A DNA stretch of 64,000 nt from an uncultured Bdellovibrio sp. Lineage in GTDB: Bacteria; Bdellovibrionota; Bdellovibrionia; Bdellovibrionales; Bdellovibrionaceae. The notes under the pieces were generated by a model. The model had not been told where the DNA came from. It worked only from the letters and a program-made list of their open reading frames with translations, and did no database searches. Made by a program: the position numbers and the translations under genes. Location: assembly GCA_963932905.1 (NCBI GenBank), contig CAWVRN010000021.1, forward strand, positions 11,799 to 75,798, given 5' to 3'. Of this stretch, positions 45,726 to 61,504 are shown in pieces; positions within the stretch are counted from its first letter, which is position 1, and every line of letters begins with the position of its first letter.

Positions 45726-46862
45726 ATGACAACGTTTGTTAATAAAACTAGCGTTTATGAGATGGAAATTGAAAGTAATTGGAAACGCATTCCTAAAACT
45801 TCGGAAAGCAGGACGGAAAATCGACTGACTCAACCATTGCATTCGTATAAAGTTTTTAACAATCCAAACATTGTTACAGAAGCTTGGTATCCCGTTGTTC
45901 CCAGCAGAAAATTAAAAAAACTGAAATCGCATTCATTTAAAATAGGTTCGCAAAGGATCGTAATTTTTCGCGGAGATGACAGTAAAGTCAGAGCCATGGA
46001 TGCGTTCTGCCCTCATATGGGTGCAGACCTTGGTCGAGGAGAAGTGACGGGAAATGAAATTCGCTGTTACTTTCATCGCTGGAAATATGATGGTGAAGGG
46101 AACTTAAATGAAATTCCCTGTAAATCTAAGTTACCTTTTAATTTGAAAATTCAAAATTATGATTCTGAAGAAGCTTATGGTTTCATCTGGGTTTATTCAG
46201 GAAAGAAAGCGCCTTACCCGGTGCCAAAACCAGCCGGCTTAGAAAATGTCGAAGTCGAAGGTCGTCTATTATTAAAGACGAAATTATTTGTACATCATCA
46301 TGTTTTGATGGCTTCGGCAATTGATCTGCAACATTTCTCTAGCGTTCATAACCTGCACGCCGATTTCAAACATGAAATCGAACAGCCGGTAGAAGATAAT
46401 TTCTATTGGAAAGTAACTGGTAAACTAGATAATAACGGCATTCGAAATAAATTTGCACGGTGGTTGCTAGGTAGCGAGTTTGGTTACCGTGCGGTATTTG
46501 CAGGCGGATCTATCGTTGCGTTGACGTATGGAATTGATCCACATTTCAGGGGTGATCTTAATAATTTCAAACTGCCAACATTGCACGTATTGTGGGGTTG
46601 TCTACCTGATGAATCAGGAATCAGCGATGCCTATGTGTTTGTAATTCAAAAAAAATCTTTGGGTTTATTTGGCAAAGTGAAATCACTTCTGCAATTCGGA
46701 TTGAGTGTTGGTTTATTAGCATGGCTGAAAGATGATGATGTGAAGGCCTTTCCTCGTATGCGCTTTCAGGCTCAGAATTTAATTGATCTAGATGGCTCTG
46801 TTGGAAAATTAATTTCATTAACGGAAAAACTAAAGGTGTCGGCGTGGTCTTACAAAAATTAG
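45726..46862 (+). CDS. Rieske non-heme iron oxygenase 1 (likely start 45762)
   Basis: CPH...CYFH; DLQHFSSVH mononuclear Fe motif. Confidence 0.9.
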   Translation: MTTFVNKTSVYEMEIESNWKRIPKTSESRTENRLTQPLHSYKVFNNPNIVTEAWYPVVPSRKLKKLKSHSFKIGSQRIVIFRGDDSKVRAMDAFCPHMGADLGRGEVTGNEIRCYFHRWKYDGEGNLNEIPCKSKLPFNLKIQNYDSEEAYGFIWVYSGKKAPYPVPKPAGLENVEVEGRLLLKTKLFVHHHVLMASAIDLQHFSSVHNLHADFKHEIEQPVEDNFYWKVTGKLDNNGIRNKFARWLLGSEFGYRAVFAGGSIVALTYGIDPHFRGDLNNFKLPTLHVLWGCLPDESGISDAYVFVIQKKSLGLFGKVKSLLQFGLSVGLLAWLKDDDVKAFPRMRFQAQNLIDLDGSVGKLISLTEKLKVSAWSYKN

Positions 46863-47629
46863 AATTACATGAATGGTTCTTGGCCTATCAGTTGGACCAT
46901 ATCAAACGGAAATGTAATCATTTGCCTGGGCAAATTCAGCTAGACATTTCGGCGCATGCCGATTTCTATGAAAAGCGTGGGCAAAAAATTCCAATCAATG
47001 CTTTATTTTTAAAACTGGTAGGTAAATGGGCTGCAGAAAATCCAAGTGCTCATAAAATGTTATTTAGAACTTGGTCCGGATGGAAGTTTCTTTATGGGGA
47101 CGAGATCAGGATAAATATCCCATTAGAAATTAAACACAAAGATCGATCGATCATTACGGCAATAGTTATCAAAAACCCTCAGAACAAATCTGTCGATGAA
47201 ATCAACCAAGAGATTAGAATGGCGAAAGAGAAATCTGTCGACCATTTTCCAATCACTAAGTTTGCTAACTTCAAACCCAATACGTTTTATAATCGGTGGC
47301 TTCTAAAAGGTTTGCACACGTTAATAAATGCATGGCCATCCTTGTATTGGAAAAAAGGCGGCGGTTGTTTAAGTGTGTCCTCGTTGTCAAACTTGGCAAA
47401 AACAGGAACTCTGTTCTCGACATATTCATTTGGTCCGACGGGGTTTACATTTTTTTATAAAGATATTGTTAGGCAGAATGAAAAAACCTACCTAAACCTT
47501 AGTATAGCTGTTGATCACAATTGTTATACAGGAATTGAAATGGTTAATCTGATGAATCGCTTTATTGACTGTGCCCAGACCGGCGAACAAAAAAACTTTA
47601 GCAAGTTAACACAGGATGTTCATATATAA
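46844..47629 (+). CDS. Stand-alone 2-oxoacid dehydrogenase E2/CAT-like acyltransferase domain
   Basis: IKNPQNKSVDEI.QEI, LSVSSL, VDHNCYTG (DHxxxDG variant); no lipoyl domain. Confidence 0.6.
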   Translation: MVLQKLELHEWFLAYQLDHIKRKCNHLPGQIQLDISAHADFYEKRGQKIPINALFLKLVGKWAAENPSAHKMLFRTWSGWKFLYGDEIRINIPLEIKHKDRSIITAIVIKNPQNKSVDEINQEIRMAKEKSVDHFPITKFANFKPNTFYNRWLLKGLHTLINAWPSLYWKKGGGCLSVSSLSNLAKTGTLFSTYSFGPTGFTFFYKDIVRQNEKTYLNLSIAVDHNCYTGIEMVNLMNRFIDCAQTGEQKNFSKLTQDVHI

Positions 47630-47698
47630 ACTGTTTAAACACAACGGTGTATTGGCTATACTCACAGTATTGAAAAATAAAATATACAAGGAGCGTAT

Positions 47699-49240
47699 AT
47701 GATTTTGAAAAGTATTTGCACGAGCGCATTACTATTGAGCTTAGCTCAAGCGGCGCCTCAACCGGTGTCTTTCTTCCCAGAAGCACCAATGGTTAACGAA
47801 ATCCCAGATTTCAAAGCTGACAATTACGCAGAGGTAAACAAGAAATGGAAAGCGAGTAGTCGCAAGATCGCCAGTGATTTTTCTGAAAGTTCATTATCAG
47901 ATGATTTCAAAAATAAACTTCGTAAGCAGTGGCTGGAAACAACAACCGCAGACGGTGTTTTTCAGTTATTAGTACAATCGCGCAAAGATTACGCTAAATA
48001 TTCACCAGACGTGCAATATTTCTTAACTCAAATGCACACGATGATTCCTTTAAAAGGTATTGTTTGGCGTTTAAGACCAATTTTTGAGGCGGGTGGTTTA
48101 TTTAAAGGTAATAAAGCAACGCATATGTCGGCGATTCAATTCGTACGCACGGCGGTTACGGGTTTAAGTGCTGCATTCCCAACATCACAGACCGATGCGA
48201 TGATTGCCTACTTCACGCAGCCTGGTCCTGAGATGTCTGAAAAATCGCAGTTTAAAACCGTCGCTGAATTTCAAAATTTTTTAGTGGATTCGTATATTCC
48301 TTACTTATTTGAAAGTGTAAAAAACATCGACGCTCTTTTGAAAAACTACAGTGAAGCCAAAGGTCGTCCTCAAGCAGAAATGGTTTGGGACAATCAAATG
48401 TTTTTTGGAACAGGGTCTTTCCGAGATGGCTTTAATCGCTACGTAGGTCATGGCCCAGCCGAGATGCACATTGCGATGGCGTTGGGATGGGAAGCTATTC
48501 ATGATGCTTATGTTTTCAGTTCATACAATCAAGATGATCTAGTTAATGTCGCGGGTCGTTTGGGTCGTGCCTTTGGTATCGACGCTTTAAAAAGCGATTC
48601 TAACGATATTGGTTTGACCGACAAAGAGCGTGCAAAGATTATCGCAAGCTACACGTCTAAAGGTTTCTTAAGCTTAAGAAAAAATAGAGATCCTAAAGCA
48701 AAAGGTGATGAAGGCTACGGTAAGAGGAATATGAAATTGGCTCTTCCGGCTAAGCGTCAGTCGGTTAATCATTTTAATCAAGCCTACATTAAATTAGAAG
48801 GCAAAGGCTCGAATTCTTCAATGGCGATCAATCCGGCTTTATATCAAAAAGATATCCAAAATCGATTGAATGCGGGTGTGAGCAAAATGGTCAGCGCAAT
48901 GGATGGCGTGACTGAATTCAAAGATCCGATGTCTTCCGAAGTCATCACAATCAACGTTCCGGCATTTTACAATGAACCGCCTCAATCTTTAGCTATACTC
49001 ATGGCAAATGACTGGGAAGGTGGCGAGTCGACAAAATCGATCACGTCAACTTCAGGAGAACAACTAAAATACAGAAACTATTTTAGTGGGCGCGCAAAAT
49101 CATGGAATAACAACGCGTGGGCAAAATACGTGACCAGCGCAAGCGGGCAAAAAGCTGACTACATGATGACTGCAAAACGTATTATGCACTATTCGCCGGG
49201 TGCGACTGTGCTTGGTGCGGTAGATCTTTTCGTAAGATAG
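47699..49240 (+). CDS. Secreted hypothetical protein (513 aa)
   Basis: AAGGAG SD; signal peptide ending AQA; no family motif recognised. Confidence 0.8.
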   Translation: MILKSICTSALLLSLAQAAPQPVSFFPEAPMVNEIPDFKADNYAEVNKKWKASSRKIASDFSESSLSDDFKNKLRKQWLETTTADGVFQLLVQSRKDYAKYSPDVQYFLTQMHTMIPLKGIVWRLRPIFEAGGLFKGNKATHMSAIQFVRTAVTGLSAAFPTSQTDAMIAYFTQPGPEMSEKSQFKTVAEFQNFLVDSYIPYLFESVKNIDALLKNYSEAKGRPQAEMVWDNQMFFGTGSFRDGFNRYVGHGPAEMHIAMALGWEAIHDAYVFSSYNQDDLVNVAGRLGRAFGIDALKSDSNDIGLTDKERAKIIASYTSKGFLSLRKNRDPKAKGDEGYGKRNMKLALPAKRQSVNHFNQAYIKLEGKGSNSSMAINPALYQKDIQNRLNAGVSKMVSAMDGVTEFKDPMSSEVITINVPAFYNEPPQSLAILMANDWEGGESTKSITSTSGEQLKYRNYFSGRAKSWNNNAWAKYVTSASGQKADYMMTAKRIMHYSPGATVLGAVDLFVR

Positions 49241-51357
49241 TCTTTTATTTTCAGGAGGCCTTTGAGAATCCAAAGGTCTCCGAACAAGTTAATTAAAAAT
49301 CCTGCGCTAAACAGCAATCCTAGGATTTTCATCGGAATCAAAGTCTGAAATAAGAAAAATAAGCTACTGATCACCGTAATAATTCCAATTATAATACTCG
49401 CTGGTCCGTTTTCTTCAACGCCTTCATCCAAATTTCCGGCATCGTTTACAAATAGATATTGAATGGCATTGTCCCCGGTTATGCCGACTAATATAGCTAG
49501 GAACATACTGTTGAATGGGCTGATCGAAATGTTTAGGATGGACATACCTGAAATCAAAAACAGTGGCCCCCCTAACAGGGACAGCGGCAGAACAAAATAG
49601 TGTTTATTTCCAAGTTTCCTTTGGAGATAGAAAATAATGAAAATTACGATAATCAAACTGACTAAAAAGCTTTCGCTTAGTGTACGACTCAGTACCTCAG
49701 AAGCTTCTCGGTAGACATCGCTTTGTCCTACAACGTGGGTTTCATCTGGGCACGACTTCTTGGTAATGGCATGTAAGTCTGATATATCGCTGGGAGAATT
49801 AGATTTAAGAAATGCAATCGCCCGAATGGAATCACGAGTTATATAACTCTTTAGAAGACCAAATTCAGTCAGTTCCCATTTAACGGAATCTCTACGTAAT
49901 GGTTCTAGTCCTTTTAGAAAATAATTTTCAATGGCGATTGGATTGTCAATTGAATGAACAGCTGGTGATTTAGCAACTTCGTTCAAGCATTCTGAAATAG
50001 CTTTTTCAGGAGTCGATGCGGGCAGTTGTATAAAGACTGTATTTTGCCAGCCCAACGAGCTATTGAATTTCTGCAGACTTTGTTTAACTGGATGAGATTC
50101 CGGGAAATTATTTGATGGATTTTCTTCAAACTTTAAATGGAAGAAAAGAAATGGTCCGGCGAATACGAACAAACTAAAACCAATGGTTAACCACCGTGAC
50201 GGTGTCCAATGATTTAATGTTTGCACTTTTTTGAAAATATCATCATTTGACTTTGTCGATACGAATTCAGAATCTAATTTCAGCGTCTTTAAAAAGGCCG
50301 GTAGCGCCATAAACGTGAAGAACCACTCTAGCAAGGCACCGATGGCGGCCGCTAGGCCAAATCGCTGAATGGTATGAAGATCAGAAATGCATAACGAGAA
50401 AAATCCAACAATTGTTGTAAGTGTTGTAAAAAATCCGGCGCGGCAATATCGGAGGGCACTGTCTTTTAAAGTAAAACCGCGGCTCATTCCCCAACATATA
50501 AAAATATAATCGGCCGTACCGGCAATTGCTGTTACTAAAAACAAACTATTGGTTAAAATATCGATGGGTAACCCGAACAGAGACATAAAGCCAGCTAAAC
50601 AACTCAAAGTCGCTACTACCGTGAACAGGAAATACATTCCTGTACGCCAAGTTCCAAAGAAGACCTTAAAAAATAACAAGAAGAAAATAATCGTTAGAAT
50701 ATGCAGTACGGAATCTTTTTTCAGAATTTCATTTACGTAGTATTGAAAAACAGAAGGGCCGACCGCACTGATAGAATAGTCGCTGCTTTTTAAATCGTTG
50801 ATCCAATGACCAACCGCTCTTAAATCAAAGTCAGGATGCAGCTTTATTTGCAGTAACATTTGTTTGTTCGTAGGGGACATTCGGTAGAACGGGTGATTGG
50901 GGTCTAAATCTTTCTTAAGTGAGGCCAGTGTCTGGCCAGTTTGTTCGCATGGGTCTGGCAGGCTCAGTGGGTACCAGAAATGCCTTGGTTGTGATTCCAC
51001 ATGTCTGAGTTTGAATAAATGAAACGTCGATTTTGTCCCGTCTATCGTTGATTCTAGTTTTTTAACTGTTTTTAAAAAGGTGCAGACTTTTTCTGAACTT
51101 GGCTCTTCATGCCACTCTACAAGAACTGACAAATTTGAAAAATCTTGGAATTCGTCCATCATATTCCACAGACGCGTCAGTGATGGAAAGTCAGAATTAT
51201 GAGAATTATATAAATCTAGCTCCACTTTAATGGATTTGAAGACCGAGAAAGACAAAAGCAGGACCAAAGTACTTATTGCCGCTACGATTCGAGGATAAGT
51301 AAATGCAGTTCTGGTGATGGTTTCAATAATTTGGAACGGCTTTTTTTTCTGCGTCAT
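49189..51357 (-). CDS. MMPL/RND-family lipid exporter
   Basis: Two repeats of TM + periplasmic domain + 5 TM; IAGTADY and GITGDN (GxxxD) motifs; TTIVGF.SL. Confidence 0.8.
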   Translation of the reverse strand: MTQKKKPFQIIETITRTAFTYPRIVAAISTLVLLLSFSVFKSIKVELDLYNSHNSDFPSLTRLWNMMDEFQDFSNLSVLVEWHEEPSSEKVCTFLKTVKKLESTIDGTKSTFHLFKLRHVESQPRHFWYPLSLPDPCEQTGQTLASLKKDLDPNHPFYRMSPTNKQMLLQIKLHPDFDLRAVGHWINDLKSSDYSISAVGPSVFQYYVNEILKKDSVLHILTIIFFLLFFKVFFGTWRTGMYFLFTVVATLSCLAGFMSLFGLPIDILTNSLFLVTAIAGTADYIFICWGMSRGFTLKDSALRYCRAGFFTTLTTIVGFFSLCISDLHTIQRFGLAAAIGALLEWFFTFMALPAFLKTLKLDSEFVSTKSNDDIFKKVQTLNHWTPSRWLTIGFSLFVFAGPFLFFHLKFEENPSNNFPESHPVKQSLQKFNSSLGWQNTVFIQLPASTPEKAISECLNEVAKSPAVHSIDNPIAIENYFLKGLEPLRRDSVKWELTEFGLLKSYITRDSIRAIAFLKSNSPSDISDLHAITKKSCPDETHVVGQSDVYREASEVLSRTLSESFLVSLIIVIFIIFYLQRKLGNKHYFVLPLSLLGGPLFLISGMSILNISISPFNSMFLAILVGITGDNAIQYLFVNDAGNLDEGVEENGPASIIIGIITVISSLFFLFQTLIPMKILGLLFSAGFLINLFGDLWILKGLLKIKDYLTKRSTAPSTVAPGE

Positions 51358-51406
51358 CGATCTAGATTATTGGACTGGGTTTTGGTTTGCGCAATATAAT
51401 TTTAGG

Positions 51407-52453
51407 ATGTCATTTGCAGATAAAATAAAAAAATTTGGGCATGCGGAATTTGTACCCGATGGTTGGTACTGGCTAATTTCATCGAACGAATTAAAAAAAG
51501 GTCAGGCGCGTCCTGCTAAATTTTTAAATCACGAATTAGTTGTTTATCGTGGTGACGATAATGAAGTGCACGCCTTAGATGCATACTGCCCACATATGGG
51601 TGCGCATCTGTGTGATGGTAAGGTAGAAGGAAACTCGATTAGGTGCCCATTTCACTTTTGGAAATTCAATGCCGATGGCATTTGCGAAGATATTCCTGTT
51701 TTAAAGGAACCCGTTAAAGTTGAACAATTAAAAAAATACAAATGTGGTGAAAGATATGGTTTGGTTTGGATTTGGTACGGTGACAGTAAAAGTTCAGTTG
51801 AAATTCCAGTCGTTCCAGAATTAGAAGGATTTCAATTAGATAGTTCTTTGGGAAAGCCATTCACAAAAGAATGTCATCCCAACGTGATGATGATTAATGC
51901 TATTGACGCTCATCATTTTAGATCGGTACATAATCTAGTTATCGATTTAGAAATGGAACCAAAGATTTTAAGTGATAATTGCATCCAGTTTTCTAACACA
52001 ACACCCATGCCACAAAAGAATTGGTTTCTTAGATGGGCGACACAGTTTTACGCGAAAGCTCTTACGTATGAATTAACGTACTGGTGGGGACATACGGGTT
52101 CAGTTATGGTGGGTCCCGATTTCTTGCATTTCTATATCATTTTTTCTTTAAGACCTAATTCTGAAGGCAAAGCAGAAGGACAAACGATACTATTAACTAA
52201 ACATCGTTCAGGTGTTACGGGCGCTTTGTTTAACAAAGTCGTTCTATATTTAACGAAACTTGTGGGAAATTATTTTGCCACGGGCGATACCCTGATTTTC
52301 TCAAGAATTAAATATAAATTCAAAACGCCGATTAAAGCAGATCGTGCGATCCTGCACTTTATTGATCACTACGAGAAACTTTCGCAAAACGGATTTGCGA
52401 AAAAAGAAAAGGAATTCAAGGCATGTTACCCAAACGATCAAATGACTCTTTAG
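51407..52453 (+). CDS. Rieske non-heme iron oxygenase 2
   Basis: CPH...CPFH; NAIDAHHFRSVH; ATG 51407 follows TATAAT-N6. Confidence 0.9.
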   Translation: MSFADKIKKFGHAEFVPDGWYWLISSNELKKGQARPAKFLNHELVVYRGDDNEVHALDAYCPHMGAHLCDGKVEGNSIRCPFHFWKFNADGICEDIPVLKEPVKVEQLKKYKCGERYGLVWIWYGDSKSSVEIPVVPELEGFQLDSSLGKPFTKECHPNVMMINAIDAHHFRSVHNLVIDLEMEPKILSDNCIQFSNTTPMPQKNWFLRWATQFYAKALTYELTYWWGHTGSVMVGPDFLHFYIIFSLRPNSEGKAEGQTILLTKHRSGVTGALFNKVVLYLTKLVGNYFATGDTLIFSRIKYKFKTPIKADRAILHFIDHYEKLSQNGFAKKEKEFKACYPNDQMTL

Positions 52454-52833
52454 AAAATTGGGATTTGTTCGTGCTTCGACATCAGCAATTAACCAATGTT
52501 CTAGTTCATTTCGTTTCATTTCTAATGTTTTGGCTAGGACCTGTATTGGGAATCCTAGTTCACCCGCTATTTTGGTTGATGTTTTTTTCGTCTGGAATGG
52601 TGGGTGTTGCGGGTCACTACTTTTTAAAAGATGGAACCGTTGATCGCAAAGAAGCGACGTCCAGTGTAGAAGTCGTCGTATTTTCATCGCTGATGGCTAT
52701 TCTGTTTGTTTGTAATTCGTATCAAAAAGAAATCGATAGGGTTAAAAAGAAATATCAGCAGTATCTGTCTGGTAATATTCCCAGCCATGCAGATGCTGAG
52801 TTATTTAAAAAACTAGGACCGCAGGTGATATAA
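52423..52833 (+). CDS. DUF962/Mpo1-like membrane protein
   Basis: HQQLTNVLVH and GHYF motifs with TM segments. Confidence 0.6.
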   Translation: MLPKRSNDSLENWDLFVLRHQQLTNVLVHFVSFLMFWLGPVLGILVHPLFWLMFFSSGMVGVAGHYFLKDGTVDRKEATSSVEVVVFSSLMAILFVCNSYQKEIDRVKKKYQQYLSGNIPSHADAELFKKLGPQVI

Positions 52834-54023: not shown

Positions 54024-54316
54024 GTAAACGACGCATTTCTTTTACCGATGATAGTTATGAGCCGGTAGAACTGCCAGACGATGCATGTTTGTCTGAACAT
54101 CTAACGGTACAAAACTCGCCAATCCTATTTGGTTGTCGTATTGGAATTTGTGGAACGTGTTTGGTCGAAGTCGTTAGCGAAGCCGACCCCTTGACAGAAC
54201 GAACAGAAAACGAAGAGGAATTTTTAGAGGCATTGTTGCCAAATAGAAAAGAATGCCGCTTGGCTTGCCAGGTGAATATTAACACCGATATCAAAATTAA
54301 AAAGATCGAGCTGTGA
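54020..54316 (+). CDS. 2Fe-2S ferredoxin
   Basis: CRIGICGTC...RLACQ. Confidence 0.92.
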   Translation: MSKRRISFTDDSYEPVELPDDACLSEHLTVQNSPILFGCRIGICGTCLVEVVSEADPLTERTENEEEFLEALLPNRKECRLACQVNINTDIKIKKIEL

Positions 54317-54317
54317 C

Positions 54318-55319
54318 ATGAATCAAAAGCAATTCTGGTACATAGCTTGTGAAAGTCGCGAGCTAAAAAATAACAAGCCACTTTCAGCTAGCATCATGGA
54401 TGAATGGATCGTTTTATTTCGCGATAAGGCCGGAAATCCAGTGGCTATGCAAGATCGGTGTTTGCATCGTTCGGCACGTTTGTCCACTGGGCGTGTTGAA
54501 GGTGGTCATATCAGTTGTCCGTATCATGGTTGGAAGTACAACTCGCAAGGTGAAGTGATTTCTATTCCTTCGGAAACTGAAGTAGGGCGCAAACGGTGCG
54601 CCGTTAAATACAATGCGATAGAAAAAGACGACTATATTTATGTTCAGTTGCAGGAACATATTATCGAACCGTTTACGATGCCTCATTATAAAGATAAAGG
54701 TTATACTACGATTCGATTGCAAAACGTTTTTGAAAACACCGTTACTAATTGTGTAGAGAACTTCTTAGATATTCCTCACACAACCTATGTTCACCCCACT
54801 ATATTTAGAAATGCATCTAGACAGAAAATGGGTGCCGTTGTCGAACGTCGTAAGGGTCACGTGAAAGTGACTTATTTGGAAGAAAAATCTGATTTCGGTA
54901 TTTTTGCATGGTTTTTAAATCCTAAAAAAGAAAGTGTCGGACACACTGATGAATTCTTTATGCCGAATGTATCGACTGTTAATTATTTTTTTGGAAAGAA
55001 ACATTTTATCATCACTTCGCAATCCGTCCCGGTAGACGCCAAGACAACCAAGGTCTATACAGATTTGACTTACAATTATGGTATATGGAACTGGATCTCG
55101 CGGCCGATCGTTCGCTGGCAGGGGCAGACTATCATTGATCAGGATATTGTGATTTTAAAAAATCAGTCAGAAACGATTCAGAAATACGGGCAACAGTTTC
55201 AAAACTCGCCATGCGATATTATTCATACCTATATTGAAAGCATTAGAAACGAAATTGAAAATGATCGAGATCCTATGACTTTGAATGAAAAAACCGAAAG
55301 GATTGAATTTTGGGTTTAG
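54318..55319 (+). CDS. Rieske non-heme iron oxygenase 3 (VanA/CAO-like)
   Basis: CLH...CPYHGW; ENFLDIPHTTYVH; C-terminal QD. Confidence 0.92.
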   Translation: MNQKQFWYIACESRELKNNKPLSASIMDEWIVLFRDKAGNPVAMQDRCLHRSARLSTGRVEGGHISCPYHGWKYNSQGEVISIPSETEVGRKRCAVKYNAIEKDDYIYVQLQEHIIEPFTMPHYKDKGYTTIRLQNVFENTVTNCVENFLDIPHTTYVHPTIFRNASRQKMGAVVERRKGHVKVTYLEEKSDFGIFAWFLNPKKESVGHTDEFFMPNVSTVNYFFGKKHFIITSQSVPVDAKTTKVYTDLTYNYGIWNWISRPIVRWQGQTIIDQDIVILKNQSETIQKYGQQFQNSPCDIIHTYIESIRNEIENDRDPMTLNEKTERIEFWV

Positions 55320-55984
55320 TGGATGTTTGGCAACGTCGATCATTAAGCGAAAAATTTATCGATGTCGTTGGACTATCCATGCAGTCGCTTTTAGTACCAG
55401 TGGTTGCGACCTATTTAGGAACTCATCTTCTTCCTAGCCTAGTGGCAATAGATAAAGAGACGTTTTCGATTCCAAATTGGATTCAGTTTTTATTGCCGTT
55501 CACTTTGGTTGATTATCTGTACTATTGGAATCATCGTCTGATGCATAGGCCAGAATTTTGGTGGCTGCATCGAGTTCATCATACATCACGTCAGTTAGAT
55601 GTTTTTGTAACATCAAGAAATTCGATTTGGACCGTATTTTTCTTTATCTACATTTGGTCGCATGCATTTCTTATTTTTTCGCAGAAAGATCCAAGTGGAT
55701 TCCTATACGGAATGTATTTATTGGCCGCGATGGATTTGTGGCGCCATTCAAATATTAAGACGCCGCAATGGGCACGTGCCTTTGGTGCTGTTTTCATTTT
55801 ACCCGAAGATCATGAATGGCATCATGCTCGGGATAAAGTCGGAATCAACTACGGCGCGAACCTAAATCTATGGGACCGAATGCACGGTACTTTTTATCGT
55901 AGTTGGGAAAAGCCTAAAGACTTAGGCGAAGAAGAAAATTATTCTGTATGGCTAAATTTGTTTTTTCCGTGGAGAGCTAAATAA
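55310..55984 (+). CDS. Sterol desaturase/fatty acid hydroxylase family protein
   Basis: His boxes HRLMH, HRVHH, HSN, HEWHH; NYG...WDR..GT. Confidence 0.9.
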   Translation: MGLVDVWQRRSLSEKFIDVVGLSMQSLLVPVVATYLGTHLLPSLVAIDKETFSIPNWIQFLLPFTLVDYLYYWNHRLMHRPEFWWLHRVHHTSRQLDVFVTSRNSIWTVFFFIYIWSHAFLIFSQKDPSGFLYGMYLLAAMDLWRHSNIKTPQWARAFGAVFILPEDHEWHHARDKVGINYGANLNLWDRMHGTFYRSWEKPKDLGEEENYSVWLNLFFPWRAK

Positions 55985-56592
55985 TGACGGTCGGAGGAAT
56001 TATTGCCAGCCTTTTTCCAGCTTTTTATTTTATTTTAAATGCCGCCGTGTTGATCGGTTTTGTTCAGCAGCCGGCGGTATCAAGTTTCCTAATCGTATTG
56101 TTTTGCGTCTATTTAATACCGCTAATCCTATATCGCATCCATTCGGTCTTTTTTAAAATCGAGGAAGGCGAGTATGATTTGTCTAAAAAAGTCTATAGCC
56201 CATGGTGGACGGCTCATATGCTGCAATATCCATTTATTGCTCTTCCTTTTTTAGAATCTCTGCTGCATTTTTTTCCGGGCCTGTATTCGATTTGGTTACG
56301 TGCATGGGGGTCAAAAATCGGAAAGAAAATTTTTTGGACACCTAGAACAGAAATTTTGGATAGAAATTTAGTAGAGATTGGTGATCAAACTATTATTGGC
56401 CACCTATCGATAATGGTTTCTCATTTAGTTGAAACTCGTTCCGGCGTTCCCAAGCTAGTGATAAAAAAAGTCCGTATCGGCGAGAAATGTTTAATTTCAG
56501 CCGACGCTCAGTTGGGCCCCGGCGCAGAGGTTCCTAGCCGCACACAGTTAAAACCAAAAACAAGACTGTATTGGAAAGGCGAATGGAAGTGA
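55984..56592 (+). CDS. Membrane-anchored hexapeptide-repeat (LbH) acyltransferase
   Basis: Two TMs; WLRAWGSKIGK, VEIGDQTIIG, VRIGEKCLI. Confidence 0.75.
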   Translation: MTVGGIIASLFPAFYFILNAAVLIGFVQQPAVSSFLIVLFCVYLIPLILYRIHSVFFKIEEGEYDLSKKVYSPWWTAHMLQYPFIALPFLESLLHFFPGLYSIWLRAWGSKIGKKIFWTPRTEILDRNLVEIGDQTIIGHLSIMVSHLVETRSGVPKLVIKKVRIGEKCLISADAQLGPGAEVPSRTQLKPKTRLYWKGEWK

Positions 56593-57950
56593 GTCTAAGG
56601 TTTAATTTTGTTCGCCTTTTTGTCCATGCACTGGCCTGGAAAGCGCGCCGAGATTTTAACTCGGCTTTGGAAAATCCTAAGCGAGCACAAGAAAAAGTAT
56701 TACGAGAAATTTTAAAGCTATCTGGAACAGACCGCTTGCCTAATCTTCCGACCTACTATTCTGATTATCCACTCCAGCAATCATGGACGTCAGAGCCGGT
56801 CAAATTCTTTGAAACGACATCTGGGAACTCAGAGAAAAAGAAACAGATTCCTTACACCGCTTCTTTACTCAAGAGCTTTCAGTCGCTATTTTTGATTTGG
56901 ATCGATGATGTGTTGACTCATCAAAAATTGAAGTCAGGGAAATTGTTTATTTCTATTTCACCTAAATTTGAATCTTTGGGAATGAATTCTGATTTGGATT
57001 ATCTGAATCCGTTTATGCAAAAACTGCTGAATCGATTTTTGGTTGTCCCTCAAAAAGATTTCGTTGCTAAAGATGGAAAAGAATTTTTTGCGCAGTTATC
57101 CGAACGGTTACTAGCTTGTCGTGAACTGGAAAGCATTTCCATTTGGAGCCCAAGTTATTTGATTTCGCTACTTGATTTTATGAAAGCAAATTATAAAGTC
57201 GGAAGCTGGCATTCCGTGTGGCCGAATTTGAAATTGATTTCTTGTTGGGTTGACGGCAGTTCACGGGAACAGGCCGCTCAGTTAAAATCTATTTTTCCAT
57301 GGGCGGTCATCCAAGCTAAGGGGCTGTTAGCAACGGAAGCACCGATCAGTGTTCCGTGGACTCAAGCTATGGGCTGCGTGCCTTTGTGGAATCAAGTCTA
57401 TTTAGAGTTCATAGATGACGATGGCAGTATTCATCCTTTGTATGAAATGAAGGCTGGAAAAAGCGGCGAAATTTTGGTGTCTACTAAGGGTGGACTGCTT
57501 CGTTATAAATTAGGTGATTTAGTTGAATGTGGCTATCGTTTCAAGAATAGCCCCGTTATTAAATTTGTCCGTCGGGTCGGCGACGTTTCAGATTTAGTCG
57601 GAGAAAAATTGGATTCCACTACGTTAATGCGCATCTTTGCCGACTATTCTGGTGTAAACTGGATTTTGATAGCGAATTGTGATCATTATGTGTTTGCTGC
57701 TGACCGTGCCATAAACCAAGACGACGTCGAAAATAAATTAAAAGAAATATTTCATTATGCTTTGGCTCGTGAACTGGGGCAGCTAAAACCGGCGTTCAGT
57801 GTTTACGTCGAAGATTTATCTGCGCAGATAAATGAATACTACGCAGCTAGAAAAATTAAATTCGGCGATATTAAAGCGAAGCTGCTTTGGACTGACCCTC
57901 AGATTCTAAATGAATTTCAGAACTTGCAATGGCATGACTCATCTCTGTAA
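56589..57950 (+). CDS. GH3-family acyl-adenylate/amide ligase
   Basis: Motif I ETTSG....KQIP; motif II KGLLATEA; motif III LRYKLGD; GEKL; GTG overlaps upstream stop. Confidence 0.85.
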   Translation: MSLRFNFVRLFVHALAWKARRDFNSALENPKRAQEKVLREILKLSGTDRLPNLPTYYSDYPLQQSWTSEPVKFFETTSGNSEKKKQIPYTASLLKSFQSLFLIWIDDVLTHQKLKSGKLFISISPKFESLGMNSDLDYLNPFMQKLLNRFLVVPQKDFVAKDGKEFFAQLSERLLACRELESISIWSPSYLISLLDFMKANYKVGSWHSVWPNLKLISCWVDGSSREQAAQLKSIFPWAVIQAKGLLATEAPISVPWTQAMGCVPLWNQVYLEFIDDDGSIHPLYEMKAGKSGEILVSTKGGLLRYKLGDLVECGYRFKNSPVIKFVRRVGDVSDLVGEKLDSTTLMRIFADYSGVNWILIANCDHYVFAADRAINQDDVENKLKEIFHYALARELGQLKPAFSVYVEDLSAQINEYYAARKIKFGDIKAKLLWTDPQILNEFQNLQWHDSSL

Positions 57951-58803
57951 TTGAATAAGGCAACCAGTTAAATTTCGCCAGTTCGTCATTTGAAAATATT
58001 TTGCTTAAGTTTTGATGAATTAGCTTTAGTTTGGCCGTAGTAGTTTGTTCGGCCTGAATAGATATTAGCATTTCACTGATTTCATGATTTGAGGTTAAGC
58101 GATTCATTTTCGCAAGTAACATAGCTACTTGGAAAGGTCCAATGCGTACGGCATCAATAACGGATTGAATGGTATTTACAAGTCCGTCTGATAACTGAAA
58201 TCCATAACTTTGGCTCAAGATTATGCCACCACCGTGATGACGAACTTCATCGAATACTATTTTAGAAAACACAGATTTTAGTTCAGTATTATCAGTACCA
58301 GATAAAAGCGATTGATAGTGATGGATACCCCAGCCTTCCAACAGTACTTGAATTAAAATAACGGAGTCACGCTTTGGTTCATTTTCAATTAATTGTGCGA
58401 TCATTTGTGAAAAATCGGGGGCCTGTGTTTCTACTGGGAACTGAAAATAGGGTTGCAGCATATACAGATGGCTTAGCTCTTCATTAGCCACCGTCGTGTA
58501 ATACTGCCGTTCTTCTTGAGTTTCAGCTAGCAAAGCCATTTTATTCGCGTAGGCAATTCCTGCATGTTCGATGGCAATAGCTTCTTTCAGCAACGCCTTG
58601 GACATCGCATTTAAGAAATCGACCTGTTGAGACTGATTTAGTTTCGACCAAAATCGGCTACTATCTATGTGAAAAAAATCGGGGCGCCAAACAGGCAGAG
58701 GTTTTTTTTCTGTAGGTGCAGACTCCAGCGATTGATGAATCAACCGCTGTAACCGATGTCTAAGTTCTGCAGGCGCTTCGGGCAATAGAACGTTAAAAGT
58801 CAC
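57871..58803 (-). CDS. Ferritin-like diiron protein
   Basis: IEHAG, EELSH, LLEGWG..HY, DEVRH ligand pattern. Confidence 0.8.
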   Translation of the reverse strand: MTFNVLLPEAPAELRHRLQRLIHQSLESAPTEKKPLPVWRPDFFHIDSSRFWSKLNQSQQVDFLNAMSKALLKEAIAIEHAGIAYANKMALLAETQEERQYYTTVANEELSHLYMLQPYFQFPVETQAPDFSQMIAQLIENEPKRDSVILIQVLLEGWGIHHYQSLLSGTDNTELKSVFSKIVFDEVRHHGGGIILSQSYGFQLSDGLVNTIQSVIDAVRIGPFQVAMLLAKMNRLTSNHEISEMLISIQAEQTTTAKLKLIHQNLSKIFSNDELAKFNWLPYSITEMSHAIASSEIHLESEGQSKAASL

Positions 58804-59652
58804 TTATTGTTCCTTCGTAAAAGCTTTGTTTAAAAATGTTCCAGAGACTTTGTGGAAAACAGATCTTGGGAAAACTTTCTTAAGAAAACGAACGGAAAAA
58901 GCGTCTTTTCCGAAACTGTAATTCAGTTTTGGGTTATGCGATTTGATGATGCGAACTACACCGCGAACGACATCTTCGGGGCGTTGTGGATTAGGACGCT
59001 TCGAAAGTTTTTCTCGAAGAGACGTGTAATTTGAAACTTGGCGATGATAGACCGATGTCGGCAGAGTTTCGCTCATTCCCCATTCGGCAGCATTATTGAA
59101 ATTGGTGCGGTAAGCACCTGGTTCAATCACGGTCACTTTGACTGAATGTGGTTTTAGTTCGTAAGACAACGATTCCGAGAACCCTTCCACCGCAAATTTA
59201 CTGGCGCAGTAGGCGCTAGATAATGGAAATCCCATAAATCCAAAGACGCTAGAGAAATTAATGATGTGGCCTTTGGCTTGTCGAATGGATGGTAGTAATT
59301 TTTGCGTTAGTAGTATCATCCCAAACACATTCACCTCAAATTGGCGACGTAGCTTTTCTTCACTGCATTCTTCCGCTGGTCCAAACACTGCAAATCCTGC
59401 GTTGTTAATCAAAACATCTAGTGGGCGTTCTAAAAAATAGTTTTCAATCGCTTTTAAGTCGGCTTGTGATGTGACATCTAAATCAAGCTCAACTAGTTTG
59501 CCTTTGTATTTTTCCCGTTCGCTTGCGAAAATTTCTTTTCGACCCAGAATGTTTCGGCCAGTGGCGATCACTTGAAAATCGTTTTCTAGCAGACTAGTAA
59601 CTAAACCCTTGCCGAAACCCGACGTCGCACCGGTTACTAATACTGTCTTCAT
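58804..59652 (-). CDS. Short-chain dehydrogenase/reductase
   Basis: TGATSGFG, NNAG, YCASK, EPG. Confidence 0.93.
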   Translation of the reverse strand: MKTVLVTGATSGFGKGLVTSLLENDFQVIATGRNILGRKEIFASEREKYKGKLVELDLDVTSQADLKAIENYFLERPLDVLINNAGFAVFGPAEECSEEKLRRQFEVNVFGMILLTQKLLPSIRQAKGHIINFSSVFGFMGFPLSSAYCASKFAVEGFSESLSYELKPHSVKVTVIEPGAYRTNFNNAAEWGMSETLPTSVYHRQVSNYTSLREKLSKRPNPQRPEDVVRGVVRIIKSHNPKLNYSFGKDAFSVRFLKKVFPRSVFHKVSGTFLNKAFTKEQ

Positions 59653-60446
59653 GTGGCCTTCTTTTTAAATAGAGTTTTTTTCAGGAAATATTGAAGCGGC
59701 ATTAACAATGTCATTTCCGCTATGCATGCCAGTTCATCACCACGATCCCAGTGAGGATTCATTTTAGCAAAGAACTGAATTTTTTTGTTTTTGAATAGTT
59801 CATCCGATATTTCTGCTACTTTTTCTTTTAGGCAGCAGGCTGTGTCGTCGAATTCAATAGTGCCTTGGTTAGCTTTGTAGCTTTTTGAAAATCGGTGGCC
59901 ATAAAACGCGTCCATCAAGCTTCGATATCGAGTTGGAGTTGATTTTTCGACTCTAGGGTAGTGAGTTTTAAAATTATTCGCCATCAACAAGTACGTTTTG
60001 TAACCTTTAGAAATTAAGAACCAGTAAACAGGGCGAGTTGGGCTTTTGACTTTTTCAGACCAAAGATATTTTAAAAAAGCCACGCCCAGTGCTTTGTTGC
60101 CCCAGTATTCTTTTTCTAAAACGGTGTCGCCGCTGTAAATTCCGATAGCGTTATGTCCTAATTGTCTTAAATCGATTTTTAGTAGCGTAGAAAATCCTTG
60201 GATTGTTTTTTGATGTGTATCTCTTAAAAGAATAACTTGGTCTTTTTCAAATAAATCAGAAACAAACTGTTCTCTATTGTGATTGATATAGTATTTAGAA
60301 AAAATCGAATACATGCGTTCTATTTCAACGGTGCTTAAAGTCGGAACTGACTTCATTTCTGCGAAAACAGATGGGCGTTCGCCACGAACCGTTTTTGTAT
60401 CAATAGTTTTAGGCTGTGTTTGAATCGAACGCGTTTCAGTGATCAT
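59649..60446 (-). CDS. Hypothetical protein, probable GNAT-like fold (GH3-associated type)
   Basis: QGFST, YSGDTVL..EYWG, YWFLISKGYKTY, GDEL.C; ATGA overlaps on both sides. Confidence 0.6.
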   Translation of the reverse strand: MITETRSIQTQPKTIDTKTVRGERPSVFAEMKSVPTLSTVEIERMYSIFSKYYINHNREQFVSDLFEKDQVILLRDTHQKTIQGFSTLLKIDLRQLGHNAIGIYSGDTVLEKEYWGNKALGVAFLKYLWSEKVKSPTRPVYWFLISKGYKTYLLMANNFKTHYPRVEKSTPTRYRSLMDAFYGHRFSKSYKANQGTIEFDDTACCLKEKVAEISDELFKNKKIQFFAKMNPHWDRGDELACIAEMTLLMPLQYFLKKTLFKKKAT

Positions 60447-61504
60447 TGGCTTTTCCCCCACTGGCTGGTTGGAATTTTGTTTACATATTGGATGTATTGA
60501 CCGACAGGACGGTCGATAGGTAGTAATTTATTAGGAGCAAAGCGCATATTTTCATACACTTCACCGTCTTCGCCTTGAAGGGATTTAAAACCCATACGAG
60601 TAATAGCGATCAAAATTTTTGATGTTATTTTTCCCATCCATCCCGAACGTTTTCTGGTCAAGAAAATCGGTTGAACCGAAGACTGACCGCCCGCTAGAGG
60701 GCGGTACGCAAAGATCATGTATAGGCTTGGAATTTTATTTTTGCCACCAAACCAGTGGCTATCTTTCACTAAAGTCAGAAATCCAGTTGAGGCATGATCG
60801 TACAACATCGAATAGGAGTAAAACGGACCGATGAAAAACTGGGTCATTCGTGCGATCCAATTCGCATTTCCAATGGCTCCGGCTAGGGAAATTTGCATTT
60901 GACGATCCGTTGCTCTGGCATCGACTTCCATTTCGATATCAATATTATGGACTGTTTTTAAATGCTGAGGATCGATACCGTTGATCATCGTAACATGATG
61001 GTGGCAGCGACGTTGATACGAAGTCCCGAAGGAAACTTCAAGGTCCTGTCCCACTAGTTCTGGAAAACACGTCAGCGGTGTGGGAGACGTCGATTTAGGA
61101 AATACCCAGATGCTTTCAAAATGTTCGGCAACGGCGTACGATTTTGTTTTTACCGATTTGCAAAAAGACGGATCAGCCGGAATGTCTTTACACTGGCCTT
61201 CAGAATCATATTTCCAGTGGTGGAAAAAACATTGGATATTTTCTTTCTTTACCGTGCCTTTTCCTAAATGTGTTCCCATGTGAGGACAGTAGGCATCGAC
61301 GCAGCCTAATTTACCGGATTCAGTTCGCCAGATAACTAGATCTTGGTGACCGATGGAAAAGGAATGAACTTTCCCGGTTTTTAATTCTTTTGAGCGCATG
61401 ACAAAATACCATCCTTCGGCGACCACATCAGGATTGTTAAAGACAGTCATCCTTACTATCGGCTGTGAAAGCTGATTTTTTGTAAACTCTTTTTGGATTT
61501 CCAT
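60443..61504 (-). CDS. Rieske non-heme iron oxygenase 4
   Basis: CPH...CFFH; NGIDPQHLKTVH; C-terminal ED. Confidence 0.9.
   Translation of the reverse strand: MEIQKEFTKNQLSQPIVRMTVFNNPDVVAEGWYFVMRSKELKTGKVHSFSIGHQDLVIWRTESGKLGCVDAYCPHMGTHLGKGTVKKENIQCFFHHWKYDSEGQCKDIPADPSFCKSVKTKSYAVAEHFESIWVFPKSTSPTPLTCFPELVGQDLEVSFGTSYQRRCHHHVTMINGIDPQHLKTVHNIDIEMEVDARATDRQMQISLAGAIGNANWIARMTQFFIGPFYSYSMLYDHASTGFLTLVKDSHWFGGKNKIPSLYMIFAYRPLAGGQSSVQPIFLTRKRSGWMGKITSKILIAITRMGFKSLQGEDGEVYENMRFAPNKLLPIDRPVGQYIQYVNKIPTSQWGKSQ

Follow-up and report, generated by a model that had tools for sequence, protein, structure and literature searches.

Background

The closest described systems are the 36 orphan 'Rieske-containing' CylC clusters of Eusebio 2021, which carry 2-4 Rieske proteins and mostly also a sterol-desaturase-family protein (PMC8406957). 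The original prediction described this class accurately, as far as the sections of that paper used here describe it. Occurrence outside cyanobacteria is not new: the class was first described in cyanobacteria, but the same sections already list a few proteobacterial members, and report homologues from Melainabacteria and from proteobacteria, mostly delta, in contexts with Rieske proteins and fatty-acid hydroxylases. The cluster described below belongs to this class as a new member.

Concerning the enzymes, Wang 2025 contrasts a Gln with the Asp in AurF, and E252 of NocO is essential for chlorination (PMC12101540, in the parts consulted). OlsH, a bacterial GH3 enzyme (2025), forms N-acyl ornithine when given free fatty acid, ATP and Mg2+; according to the portion of the report used here, it requires neither ACP nor CoA (PMC12493201).

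The gene cluster

The window, that is, the whole stretch of DNA that was analysed, comprises 64,000 nucleotides. The cluster's host is Bdellovibrio, a predatory bacterium, in agreement with the Bdellovibrionota-like host that had been proposed. When the open reading frames of the window were checked, the 16 genes of positions 45726-61504 had their coordinates, order and strands all as first listed, and most gene pairs meet by overlaps or 0-4 nt gaps; the observation of a tight cluster stands. The genes are as follows.

A, 45726..46862, plus strand: Rieske oxygenase 1, 378 aa (Pfam Rieske 7.2e-22)
B, 46844..47629, plus strand: CAT/E2-like acyltransferase candidate, 261 aa (2-oxoacid_dh E 0.0023); its start overlaps the end of A
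C, 47699..49240, plus strand: secreted, mostly helical protein, 513 aa, with a signal-like N-terminal segment; accompanies the RND gene
D, 49189..51357, minus strand: 12-TM RND-superfamily (HAE3/HpnN-like) transporter, 722 aa (12 hydrophobic segments; sub-cut-off matches)
E, 51314..52453, plus strand: Rieske oxygenase 2, 379 aa, core member (Pfam Rieske 1.6e-23)
F, 52423..52833, plus strand: small 3-TM Mpo1-like (DUF962-like) membrane protein, 136 aa (alignment with a fusion protein's Mpo1-like portion)
G, 52833..54023, plus strand: CylC-family ferritin-like diiron protein of the Rieske-type clade, 396 aa (both family motifs)
H, 54020..54316, plus strand: 2Fe-2S ferredoxin, 98 aa (Pfam Fer2 9.4e-9)
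I, 54318..55319, plus strand: Rieske oxygenase 3 with a VanA_C-type catalytic domain, 333 aa (Rieske 1.2e-26, VanA_C 1.1e-7)
J, 55310..55984, plus strand: membrane His-box protein of the fatty-acid hydroxylase / sterol-desaturase family, 224 aa (FA_hydroxylase 8e-25)
K, 55984..56592, plus strand: membrane-anchored left-handed beta-helix (LbH) acyltransferase, 202 aa (Hexapep E 0.0014)
L, 56571..57950, plus strand: GH3-family ATP-dependent amide synthetase, 459 aa (Pfam GH3 and GH3_M)
M, 57871..58803, minus strand: second ferritin-like diiron-carboxylate protein, 310 aa (sub-cut-off AurF/Ferritin_2, ExxH)
N, 58804..59652, minus strand: short-chain dehydrogenase/reductase (SDR), 282 aa (adh_short 5e-47, PRK06914 3e-66)
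O, 59649..60461, minus strand: GNAT-fold acyltransferase of an unnamed family, 270 aa (AF2 model and fold comparison)
P, 60443..61504, minus strand: Rieske oxygenase 4, 353 aa (Rieske 2.4e-24)

Assignment of the proteins

The four Rieske genes that had been claimed are indeed all there: A, E, I and P match Pfam Rieske with E from 7e-22 to 1e-26, and each has CxH..CxxH and HxxxxH. The same motif scan found intact metal sites in J, M and G. A, E and P are paralogues, A being 27-32% identical to E and P. Among solved structures, E is closest to SxtT/SxtDIOX (8.5e-24) and KshA (3e-21), I to NdmA (3e-20), DdmC, SxtT and KshA, and P to KshA (8e-20) and SxtDIOX; these relatives (SxtT, KshA, NdmA, DdmC) are sp3 C-H monooxygenases and demethylases. 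Among the related loci compared, A occurs in Bdellovibrionota versions only, E orthologues sit in cyanobacterial and Sericytochromatia loci, and a relative of I adjoins GH3 even in clusters without G. H always comes after G in related loci and is probably the electron donor; the 16 genes include no ferredoxin reductase.

L matches Pfam GH3 with 54 bits (N-terminal domain, 1.9e-14) and GH3_M with 43 bits (middle domain, 3.7e-11), both above the 23.6 cut-off, and matches no NCBIfam model. A pattern search gave a clear match to motif III and a divergent motif I, and did not find motif II. The start of L overlaps the end of K by 22 nt, and L is the sole GH3 protein in the host genome.

For B, K, M, F and D the assignments rest on sub-threshold matches. 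We keep B as an acyltransferase, a real but weak label: its 2-oxoacid_dh match is below the Pfam cut-off, and 2/10 homologues found (29-31% identical) carry PF00198; in the loci compared, B too is confined to Bdellovibrionota versions. Likewise the LbH label of K is real and weakly based, the Hexapep match being joined by a Pls/PosA terminal domain (1e-9) and WcaF (5e-6) behind three N-terminal hydrophobic segments. O has no Pfam match, yet both Foldseek (E about 3e-5) and VIA (Z 13.2) assign a GNAT fold to its AF2 model (pLDDT 89.7), as had been suggested; a homologue search gave 1284 relatives. F itself has no Pfam match either, and its DUF962 label holds through alignment (E 2e-8) with the Mpo1-like C-terminal portion of a cyanobacterial fusion protein (L018:4794-7067:-); two F orthologues match Mpo1-like weakly (E 0.046 and 0.19). 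The ferritin-like label of M, too, is real and weak: its AurF (3.4e-4) and Ferritin_2 (8.7e-4) matches both fall below their Pfam cut-offs, and it has ExxH at residues 109 and 186, out of four ExxH matches; M is kept in related loci. J has three His boxes, and its best NCBIfam match is OlsE (55 bits, cut-off 475).

Transmembrane segments are present in J, K, F and D. What had been called MMPL, D, is a 12-TM RND/HAE3-like transporter that scores 19.7 bits for MMPL, under the Pfam cut-off of 20.5; its HAE3 match (1e-10) is far below cut-off, and its best NCBIfam match is HpnN (TIGR03480, 7e-12). Its companion C adjoins it in the three related loci L040-L042 and has 327 representative relatives, but matches nothing in Pfam or NCBIfam; its AF2 model (pLDDT 89.9) has no fold match in the PDB (best values: Foldseek E 0.26, VIA Z 7.2).

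Conservation of the gene set

We count 23 related loci in which the gene set recurs. One of them (L040), from another Bdellovibrionota family, has all 16 genes, rearranged and 28-69% identical, and L041 and L042 have 14/16. A 10-gene core, G-H-I-J-K-L plus M-N-O-E, recurs in loci of Sericytochromatia, Melainabacteria, Oculatellaceae (Cyanobacteria) and Bacteriovoracaceae. The cluster had been taken for a rearranged relative of the cyanobacterial class, which the synteny of this core with Oculatellaceae, Melainabacteria and Sericytochromatia loci, and the place of G in their clade, bear out.

Co-occurrence was followed in 301 Cyanobacteriota and 301 Bdellovibrionota genomes, and the genes are found together across other genomes far beyond chance. 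In the former sample, a strong GH3 match is present in 29/30 genomes with a G orthologue against 2/271 without, and some of these G-GH3 pairs are unlinked in the genome. In the latter, GH3 is present in 15/15 G-positive genomes against 3/286 without G, O is present in the same 15/15, and GH3 accompanies O in 49/50 O-positive genomes, often within 2 kb. Related GH3-GNAT-Rieske clusters without G also exist. The widespread heart of the system is the GH3-GNAT pair, with the CylC homologue as an accessory that some of the genomes have.

Proposed pathway

The 16 genes form one functional unit, the Bdellovibrionota version of the 'Rieske-containing CylC-homologue' cluster, and in our opinion it is an even call, and the most likely reading, that this unit makes and exports an oxidised fatty-acid amide lipid. 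In an ATP-dependent step, L would couple a free carboxylic acid, fatty or oxidised, with an amine that is probably an amino acid, giving, by analogy with OlsH acting on ornithine, an N-acyl amide lipid; O, K and, in Bdellovibrionota, B may attach further acyl or acetyl groups. Unactivated C-H bonds of the hydrocarbon chain would be oxidised by the four alpha3-type Rieske monooxygenases, fed by ferredoxin H, together with the His-box hydroxylase J, the diiron proteins G and M, and the Mpo1-like F. The SDR N would interconvert hydroxyl and keto groups. The product would reach the envelope through the pump D and the secreted C.

A lipid or acyl amide that is oxidised and exported would be in keeping with the presence of membrane anchors, an RND pump and a GH3 enzyme, and the N-acyl ornithine synthesis by OlsH points, as an analogy, to a product of the aminolipid type. 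The host genome has three OlsB/OlsF-type (Acetyltransf_5) genes elsewhere, hence a second aminolipid route is not required a priori. The carboxylate activated by GH3 could just as well stem from methyl oxidation as be a fatty acid.

Does G halogenate?

A canonical CylC-type pathway, in which the diiron enzyme would put chlorine on a fatty acyl chain on the way to a halogenated lipid natural product, is in our view unlikely, though it is the most serious of the alternatives. The label 'CylC-like' itself is real: G has both dimetal-halogenase motifs (ExxQExxH at 128, HxxDExxH at 243), has 1146 relatives in a homologue search, and aligns end to end with FAAL-ACP(-PKS)-linked homologues at 27-29% identity, sharing with them E98, E128, Q131, E132, H135, H243, D246, E247 and H250, nine residues that include the Gln contrasted with the Asp of AurF (PMC12101540). 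The label is weaker in that G has no match in the local Pfam at E <= 0.01, a relaxed threshold giving a weak AurF match (E 0.013).

On the contrary, the column that corresponds by spacing to NocO E252 holds Q in 127/127 Rieske-type sequences and E in 7/7 halogenase-context sequences, and the next residue is H in 126/127 of the Rieske-type; G has Q217-H218 where the halogenase-context homologues have E. The spacer between the motifs is 108-110 residues in the Rieske type against 150-171 in the FAAL-ACP type, so the Rieske-type clade is without the 40-60-residue insert of the carrier-dependent, halogenase-context homologues. Halogenation is doubtful because of these two features, and the earlier claim of a possibly halogenated product is weakened by the first of them as well as by the want of a carrier protein: Pfam finds no FAAL, ACP, PKS or NRPS among the 16 genes, while 5/5 distant homologues fetched lie in FAAL-ACP(-PKS) contexts. 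In the tree, G falls among homologues from Oculatellaceae, Melainabacteria and Sericytochromatia clusters, and the longest branch divides the Rieske type from the FAAL-ACP group with 100/100 support. The absence of G from related GH3-GNAT-Rieske clusters also speaks against such a pathway. Under the fatty-acid amide pathway that we prefer, the substrate of G would not be carrier-bound, and G may hydroxylate or desaturate instead of chlorinating.

Other explanations

Catabolism or detoxification of an external hydrophobic compound (steroid, alkyl or aromatic), with the RND pump as importer or efflux system, seems to us rather improbable. KshA and demethylases are indeed among the nearest solved Rieske relatives, the cluster does have an SDR and a sterol-desaturase-family protein, and Pfam finds no scaffold-building synthase among the 16 genes. 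But it finds no thiolase, beta-oxidation or ring-cleavage enzyme, CoA ligase or regulator among them either, an amide synthetase and three acyltransferase-like proteins are building functions, and the same core is shared by phototrophs, non-photosynthetic Sericytochromatia and Melainabacteria, and predators.

We regard sterol or hopanoid tailoring and transport, by SdmA/SdmB-like methyl oxidation and HpnN-like export, as very improbable. SdmA is the best NCBIfam match of all four Rieske proteins (E 8e-19 to 4e-23), HpnN that of D, and J is in the sterol-desaturase superfamily; however, the SdmA matches reach 68-82 bits where the cut-off is 600, the HpnN match reaches 44 where it is 752, a PF13243 search of the 98.6%-complete genome found no C-terminal domain of a squalene-hopene or oxidosqualene cyclase, and such pathways have no place for the GH3, GNAT and LbH proteins.

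That the genes are neighbours by chance or shared ancestry only is, despite many weak assignments, hardly credible, being contradicted by cross-phylum conservation in spite of rearrangement and by the co-occurrence of G and GH3 even where unlinked, with overlapping coding ends as a further argument.

Comparison with known systems

D shares 12 TM segments and RND-type homology with the lipid-exporting HpnN, HAE3 and MMPL transporters; it differs in scoring far under every family cut-off and in its pairing with the secreted helical protein C. The cluster's Rieske proteins have the Rieske domain and mononuclear-iron catalytic domain of the alpha3 monooxygenases SxtT/SxtDIOX, KshA, NdmA and DdmC, with identity mostly within the first ~160-250 residues.

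The OlsH-OlsI-OlsG pathway of Singulisphaera (Rivera-Najera et al. 2025; PMC12493201, in the parts used) likewise has a bacterial GH3 enzyme in a lipid-type operon with acyltransferases. L is shorter than OlsH (459 aa vs 526 aa); neither the OlsI alpha/beta-hydrolase nor OlsG has a counterpart among the 16 genes, the sole nearby methyltransferase (63271-63945) is outside the conserved set, and the Bdellovibrio cluster has eight iron enzymes attached.

With CylC, NocO and BrtJ, G has in common the ferritin-like diiron scaffold, the two motifs and 27-29% full-length identity. Where they have E-Y/Q/H, G has Q217-H218; compared with the FAAL-ACP type, its spacer is 40-60 residues shorter and it has no FAAL/ACP neighbour. 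It belongs to a separate, fully supported (100/100) clade.

The nearest likeness is to the cyanobacterial 'Rieske-containing' clusters (PMC8406957, as far as described in the sections consulted). In both, a single CylC homologue from the same clade occurs together with 2-4 Rieske proteins, acyltransferases, a ferritin-like protein and a member of the sterol-desaturase family; both lack a carrier protein, and both are orphans; the Bdellovibrio cluster is directly syntenic with Oculatellaceae and Melainabacteria loci. It differs in host and in its rearranged gene order, and Bdellovibrionota versions add Rieske 1, the CAT-like acyltransferase, the RND pump and the secreted helical protein, where the cyanobacterial locus L018 has instead a GT2 glycosyltransferase, a SnoaL-like protein and an amidohydrolase-Mpo1 fusion.

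Gene content and surroundings of the cluster

The cluster consists of 16 open reading frames, designated A to P, in four units. The majority of adjacent genes abut (M/N) or overlap, the overlaps being 19 nt for A/B, 31 for E/F, 1 for F/G, 4 for G/H, 10 for I/J, 1 for J/K, 22 for K/L, 4 for N/O and 19 for O/P. The features of the window discussed here are the following.

7987-15730, - strand: complete kdp potassium-uptake set (KdpA, a P-type ATPase in the KdpB position, KdpC, sensor kinase KdpD, response regulator)
15840-17237: beta-barrel porin gene, adjoining the kdp set
36334-37748, - strand: radical SAM/SPASM protein (331 aa) and a 151-aa ORF overlapping its start, the latter with no Pfam match
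44586-45653, - strand: 224-aa protein made up of secretin N-terminal (GspD N0/N1) domains only, and an Imm1-like immunity protein; both lie just upstream of the cluster
45726-61504: the cluster, in the units A-B-C (+), D (-), E-F-G-H-I-J-K-L (+) and P-O-N-M (-)
61724-63217, + strand: Q, 497 aa; hydrophobic segment at the N-terminus and one haem-c-type motif (CxxCH, residue 194); neither Pfam nor PDB gives a match
63271-63945, + strand: R, a class-I methyltransferase-like protein

The radical SAM/SPASM protein and its 151-aa neighbour could be a peptide-maturase pair. The 224-aa protein has a full-length secretin paralogue (783 aa) on another contig, C14. Q and R were considered as cluster members and rejected, because they adjoin it only within the genus, in the related locus L008 (Q alone also in L011, at 43% identity), and neither is found in loci L038-L042. 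The 3' end of the window is the end of the contig (C21, 75,798 bases). The G+C content of the cluster (0.39-0.41) lies inside the range of the window (0.36-0.45), and therefore composition gives no sign of recent import. Within its own genome every cluster gene is single-copy except the SDR gene N and the pump gene D, while the Rieske proteins resemble one another. G is patchy in the 41 nearest genomes, being present in five, the genome under study included. Of 17 sequencing runs listed, the best DNA ones are groundwater and wastewater metagenomes, and no RNA run is among them.

The gene labels of the original prediction proved right in kind, but those of D, K, B, F and O are weaker than stated, with sub-threshold or no Pfam matches. 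Pfam finds a Rieske domain in A, E, I and P, with the VanA_C catalytic domain additionally in I, as well as Fer2 in H, FA_hydroxylase in J and SDR in N. By pattern, the CxH..CxxH and HxxxxH iron motifs are present in all four Rieske proteins and three His boxes in J. The second ferritin-like protein, M, has four ExxH matches, of which we read those at 109 and 186 as the diiron pair. The closest solved structures to the Rieske proteins are SxtT, KshA, NdmA and DdmC, that is, enzymes of hydroxylation or demethylation at sp3 carbons. The top NCBIfam match of J is the ornithine-lipid hydroxylase OlsE, well short of the cut-off. A PDB sequence search was uninformative for G, M, O, C and B.

D was labelled MMPL, which its 19.7 bits against PF03176 (gathering threshold 20.5) do not sustain; its top matches, HpnN and HAE3, are both well short of their family cut-offs, and together with 12 transmembrane segments they point to an RND-superfamily protein. 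K is predicted to be an acyltransferase of the left-handed beta-helix type; it has three membrane segments at its N-terminus and a likeness to the Pls/PosA terminal domain. B is probably a diverged acyltransferase of the CAT/E2 type. F, with three transmembrane segments, has no PF06127 match even at E <= 10, and its orthologues match weakly (E 0.046 and 0.19); it does align pairwise (E 2e-8) to the PF06127-positive, Mpo1-like part of an amidohydrolase-Mpo1 fusion in a cyanobacterial cluster. O has no Pfam family, and a confident structure model predicts a GNAT fold.

The sole non-enzyme is C, secreted and mainly helical, with 327 representative relatives at the 50% clustering level. The ESM Atlas gave Bdellovibrionota hypotheticals for C and no more than 'GNAT (putative)' for O. 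Against solved folds the confident model of C (pLDDT 89.9, pTM 0.89) reached at best E 0.26 in Foldseek and Z 7.2 in VIA, the latter on helical repeats. A bacterial sterol transporter stands at VIA Z 5.1, which is noise level, and we assign C no fold. C could represent a new type of partner for RND lipid pumps, located in the periplasm or the outer membrane.

Conservation and co-occurrence

Synteny and genome-wide co-occurrence both argue that the cluster genes belong together. A locus from another Bdellovibrionota family (L040) has all 16 genes, reordered and at 28-69% identity, and two further loci (L041, L042) have 14 each; the C-D adjacency is kept in all three. A near-identical architecture is found in a near-complete genome of 6 contigs (G392). 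The core G-H-I-J-K-L, usually with M-N-O-E close by, recurs in loci of Sericytochromatia, Obscuribacterales, Oculatellaceae and Drouetiella, and Bacteriovoracaceae, and in a Verrucomicrobiales MAG the contig covers J-G-H and stops within I. Two orthologues have in-frame stops, which could reflect decay or assembly error: one TGA in a GH3 gene (G001:C120:72921-74336) and two TAA in an O gene (G493:C376:3023-3745, locus L011).

We queried samples of 301 genomes each. G orthologues occur in 30 Cyanobacteriota (the phylum of locus L018; 50-57% identity, E <= 1e-130) and in 15 Bdellovibrionota. A strong GH3 match, that is E <= 1e-33, a threshold chosen after a gap in the E-value list was visible, is present in 29/30 Cyanobacteriota with G versus 2/271 without it, and in 15/15 Bdellovibrionota with G versus 3/286 without it. 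The lone cyanobacterial exception (G159) is a fragmented 2.3-Mb assembly. The two genes are sometimes megabases apart, for example in genomes G250 and G157. The original prediction proposed co-occurrence as a check, and the genes indeed travel together. Gene content, integrity of the metal sites, conservation and co-occurrence can be regarded as established.

In our opinion, it is probably the GH3-GNAT pair, and not the CylC homologue, that forms the conserved heart. In the Bdellovibrionota sample a GH3 match (here at E <= 1e-5) is found in 81 of 301 genomes, an O-type GNAT in 50 and G in only 15. GH3 accompanies O in 49 of the 50 O-positive genomes, often within 2 kb, and all 15 G-positive genomes have both. 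Further, two reduced loci have neither G nor the ferredoxin: one (L043, G470:C1:3681000-3697000) with an O-like GNAT, GH3, a protein like the third Rieske oxygenase (Rieske/VanA_C) and a D-like fragment, the other (L044, G027:C1:187000-203000) with J-, I-, O-, M-, K- and L-like genes consecutively. Since GH3 and O are commoner than G and such G-less loci exist, the CylC homologue and the ferredoxin look like a later addition to an older GH3-GNAT-Rieske module. In a large protein collection G has 1146 relatives (precomputed Pfam label PF28091) and O has 1284, which suggests a family larger than 'rare' implies. Among the relatives listed for these two proteins the majority are nameless, and the few named ones come from Bdellovibrionota, Bacteriovoracia or Blastocatellia MAGs.

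The CylC homologue and the question of halogenation

The suggestion that the product is possibly halogenated finds some basis in G, which carries both ExxQExxH (residues 128-135) and HxxDExxH (243-250), the motifs described as defining dimetal-carboxylate halogenases (PMC12101540; also a 2026 preprint). Besides the 30 orthologues, the Cyanobacteriota sample holds a second, sharply separate set of about ten genomes with distant G homologues (27-37% identity, frames of about 420-475 residues). Eight of these loci were fetched and six scanned (all but L032 and L036). Five have a FAAL-ACP(-PKS) context (L030, L031, L033, L034, L037), the setting in which proven halogenases occur, with the PKS adjoining in L030, L031 and L034, and the sixth (L035) has KAS III, glycosyltransferase and ABC-transporter neighbours. 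G aligns end to end with the FAAL-ACP-linked homologues at 27-29% identity, and E98, E128, Q131, E132, H135, H243, D246, E247 and H250 are common to both.

The difference lies elsewhere. Position 217 is Q in 127/127 Rieske-type sequences and E in 7/7 from a halogenase context; position 218 is H in 126/127 of the Rieske type; and the spacer between the motifs is 108-110 residues in the Rieske type versus 150-171 in the FAAL-ACP type. In the halogenase NocO, the Ala variant of the second-sphere E252 is reported to lose chlorination while keeping iron (PMC12101540). We infer that position 217 of G corresponds to this residue from spacing only (30 residues ahead of the Asp), since NocO itself is absent from the alignment. 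The Q-H column, the missing spacer insert and the absence of a carrier protein all weaken the case for a halogenated product, which we hold to be less likely. Conceivably, the Rieske-type homologues with these three features form a distinct non-halogenase subfamily, a reading that we consider rather doubtful at present.

A maximum-likelihood tree (midpoint root, with one long row, L037, flagged) separates 24 Rieske-type rows from seven others on its longest branch, with support 100/100. G falls among homologues belonging to clusters of Cyanobacteria, Melainabacteria and Sericytochromatia, while the FAAL-ACP and Brt-like rows stand apart. Within the Rieske type, three Bdellovibrionota genomes of Bacteriovoracaceae type (L016, L038 and L039) have CylC homologues that join Sericytochromatia and not the clade of the window (L012-L017, L023 and L024 being the rows compared), with support 92/90 and 98/96. 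With thin sampling and a midpoint root only, this suggests transfer of the CylC homologue between phyla.

The likely product

L matches GH3 with 54.0 bits and GH3_M with 43.4, against a Pfam cut-off of 23.6. OlsH, a bacterial GH3-like enzyme, is described as forming N-acyl ornithine from free fatty acid with ATP and Mg2+, without ACP or CoA, after which a second enzyme O-acylates the product; its authors suggest that further N-acyl amino acids are made by GH3 homologues of other bacteria (Rivera-Najera 2025, PMC12493201). Several features of the cluster fit such a route, namely the GH3 protein, the lack of a carrier protein, membrane-bound oxygenases, the RND pump and three acyltransferase-like proteins, of which one has a membrane anchor and is coupled in translation to GH3. 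Because of this fit, the OlsE-like J and the sp3-acting relatives of the Rieske proteins, we favour by analogy, as the product, an envelope lipid of aminolipid type, namely an N-acyl amide tailored by oxidation. The individual reactions, the substrate and the direction of transport are all inferred.

Certain points stand against the aminolipid reading. Of the GH3 nucleotide-binding motifs (as defined in PMC12493201), motif III is present at 307 by pattern, but motif I is divergent (a stretch near residue 82 recognized by eye only, the specific pattern being blank and the loose SG[ST] matching only SGT at 51), and the pattern search gave no motif II. Of the OlsH operon, the alpha/beta-hydrolase OlsI has no counterpart among the 16 genes by Pfam, and none was identified there for OlsG. 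Moreover, the genome already has three genes of the OlsB/OlsF type.

Catabolism of an external compound seems unlikely to us, as degradative enzymes are absent from the 16 genes by Pfam and building enzymes present. Sterol or hopanoid tailoring, to which the Rieske proteins and the HpnN match of D might point, is likewise unlikely, because no PF13243 cyclase match was found in the genome (98.6% complete) and the matches to SdmA and HpnN reach only a small part of the scores required. The Rieske proteins score 68-82 bits versus the SdmA equivalog cut-off of 600, and a match to the bacterial sterol C-4 demethylation pathway (SdmA/SdmB) is not borne out. One SQS_PSY gene is present on another contig.

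The favoured N-acyl amide lipid can be taken further, as a proposition that we consider rather doubtful at present. The Rieske-type CylC homologues would be diiron oxygenases or desaturases acting on free, membrane-embedded N-acyl amide lipids, and with the GH3-GNAT pair, Rieske monooxygenases and export by an RND pump and a helical protein they would yield a new class of poly-oxygenated aminolipids in the envelopes of predatory Bdellovibrionota, Sericytochromatia, Melainabacteria and many cyanobacteria.

Significance

Among the CylC-homologue clusters of cyanobacteria, the Rieske-containing ones are given as the most abundant category (36 of 95), with no product (Eusebio 2021, PMC8406957). 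We found no later paper assigning one. In our literature searches the phrase 'Rieske-containing' and a gene cluster with most of this set (Rieske, GH3, fatty acid hydroxylase, ferritin-like) were met only in Eusebio 2021, and papers on dimetal-carboxylate halogenases and on Bdellovibrio Rieske lipid clusters yielded no product assignment. The original prediction emphasized a non-cyanobacterial genome; the host is indeed Bdellovibrio, but such occurrence is not new, as the network of that paper is described as including a small number of homologues from Proteobacteria (mostly delta) and Melainabacteria, in contexts with Rieske proteins and fatty-acid hydroxylases (PMC8406957). Its supplement (cluster drawings and a list of non-cyanobacterial homologues) may already show Bdellovibrionota members.

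Since the class, its orphan status and its proteobacterial members are already in Eusebio 2021, the window adds leads and not a new category. It presents all 16 genes, including an export module of their own, in a lineage of predators that is not photosynthetic, and makes Bdellovibrionota a second, independent lineage in which to seek the product. The new leads are the GH3-GNAT pair as the probable conserved heart, an aminolipid-type product as suggested by the OlsH analogy, and a one-column signature (217) that parts the carrier-independent clade from the halogenase-context homologues. A diiron enzyme acting on unactivated C-H bonds of a free substrate would also be of interest for biocatalysis, as that paper points out (PMC8406957).

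Comparison with known systems

CylC-type halogenases share both diiron motifs with G. However, their ninth conserved active-site residue is the second-sphere Glu (NocO E252), for which G has Q217 at the column assigned by spacing, and they act on ACP-tethered acyl substrates with FAAL and ACP encoded alongside, whereas AMP-binding and PP-binding domains are absent by Pfam from all 16 genes.

The cyanobacterial version of the cluster at L018:4794-9215 encodes three proteins that the Bdellovibrio version lacks, namely a 757-aa fusion of an amidohydrolase with an Mpo1-like domain, a GT2 glycosyltransferase and a SnoaL-like protein; these extra genes give a hint that the product there may be a variant form, glycosylated or deacylated.

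The closest likeness is to the Rieske-containing class of Eusebio 2021, as originally predicted. That class has a single CylC homologue of the Rieske/PriA clade, where G also falls (100/100), two to four Rieske proteins with a sterol-desaturase-family protein, for which the window has four and one FA_hydroxylase, and no FAAL-type activating enzyme or carrier protein beside them, as here. The host is the difference: the class is described from cyanobacteria, chiefly Nostocales and Oscillatoriales, whereas the window comes from Bdellovibrio and its nearest loci belong to Bdellovibrio sp., Bdellovibrionaceae or Pseudobdellovibrionaceae.
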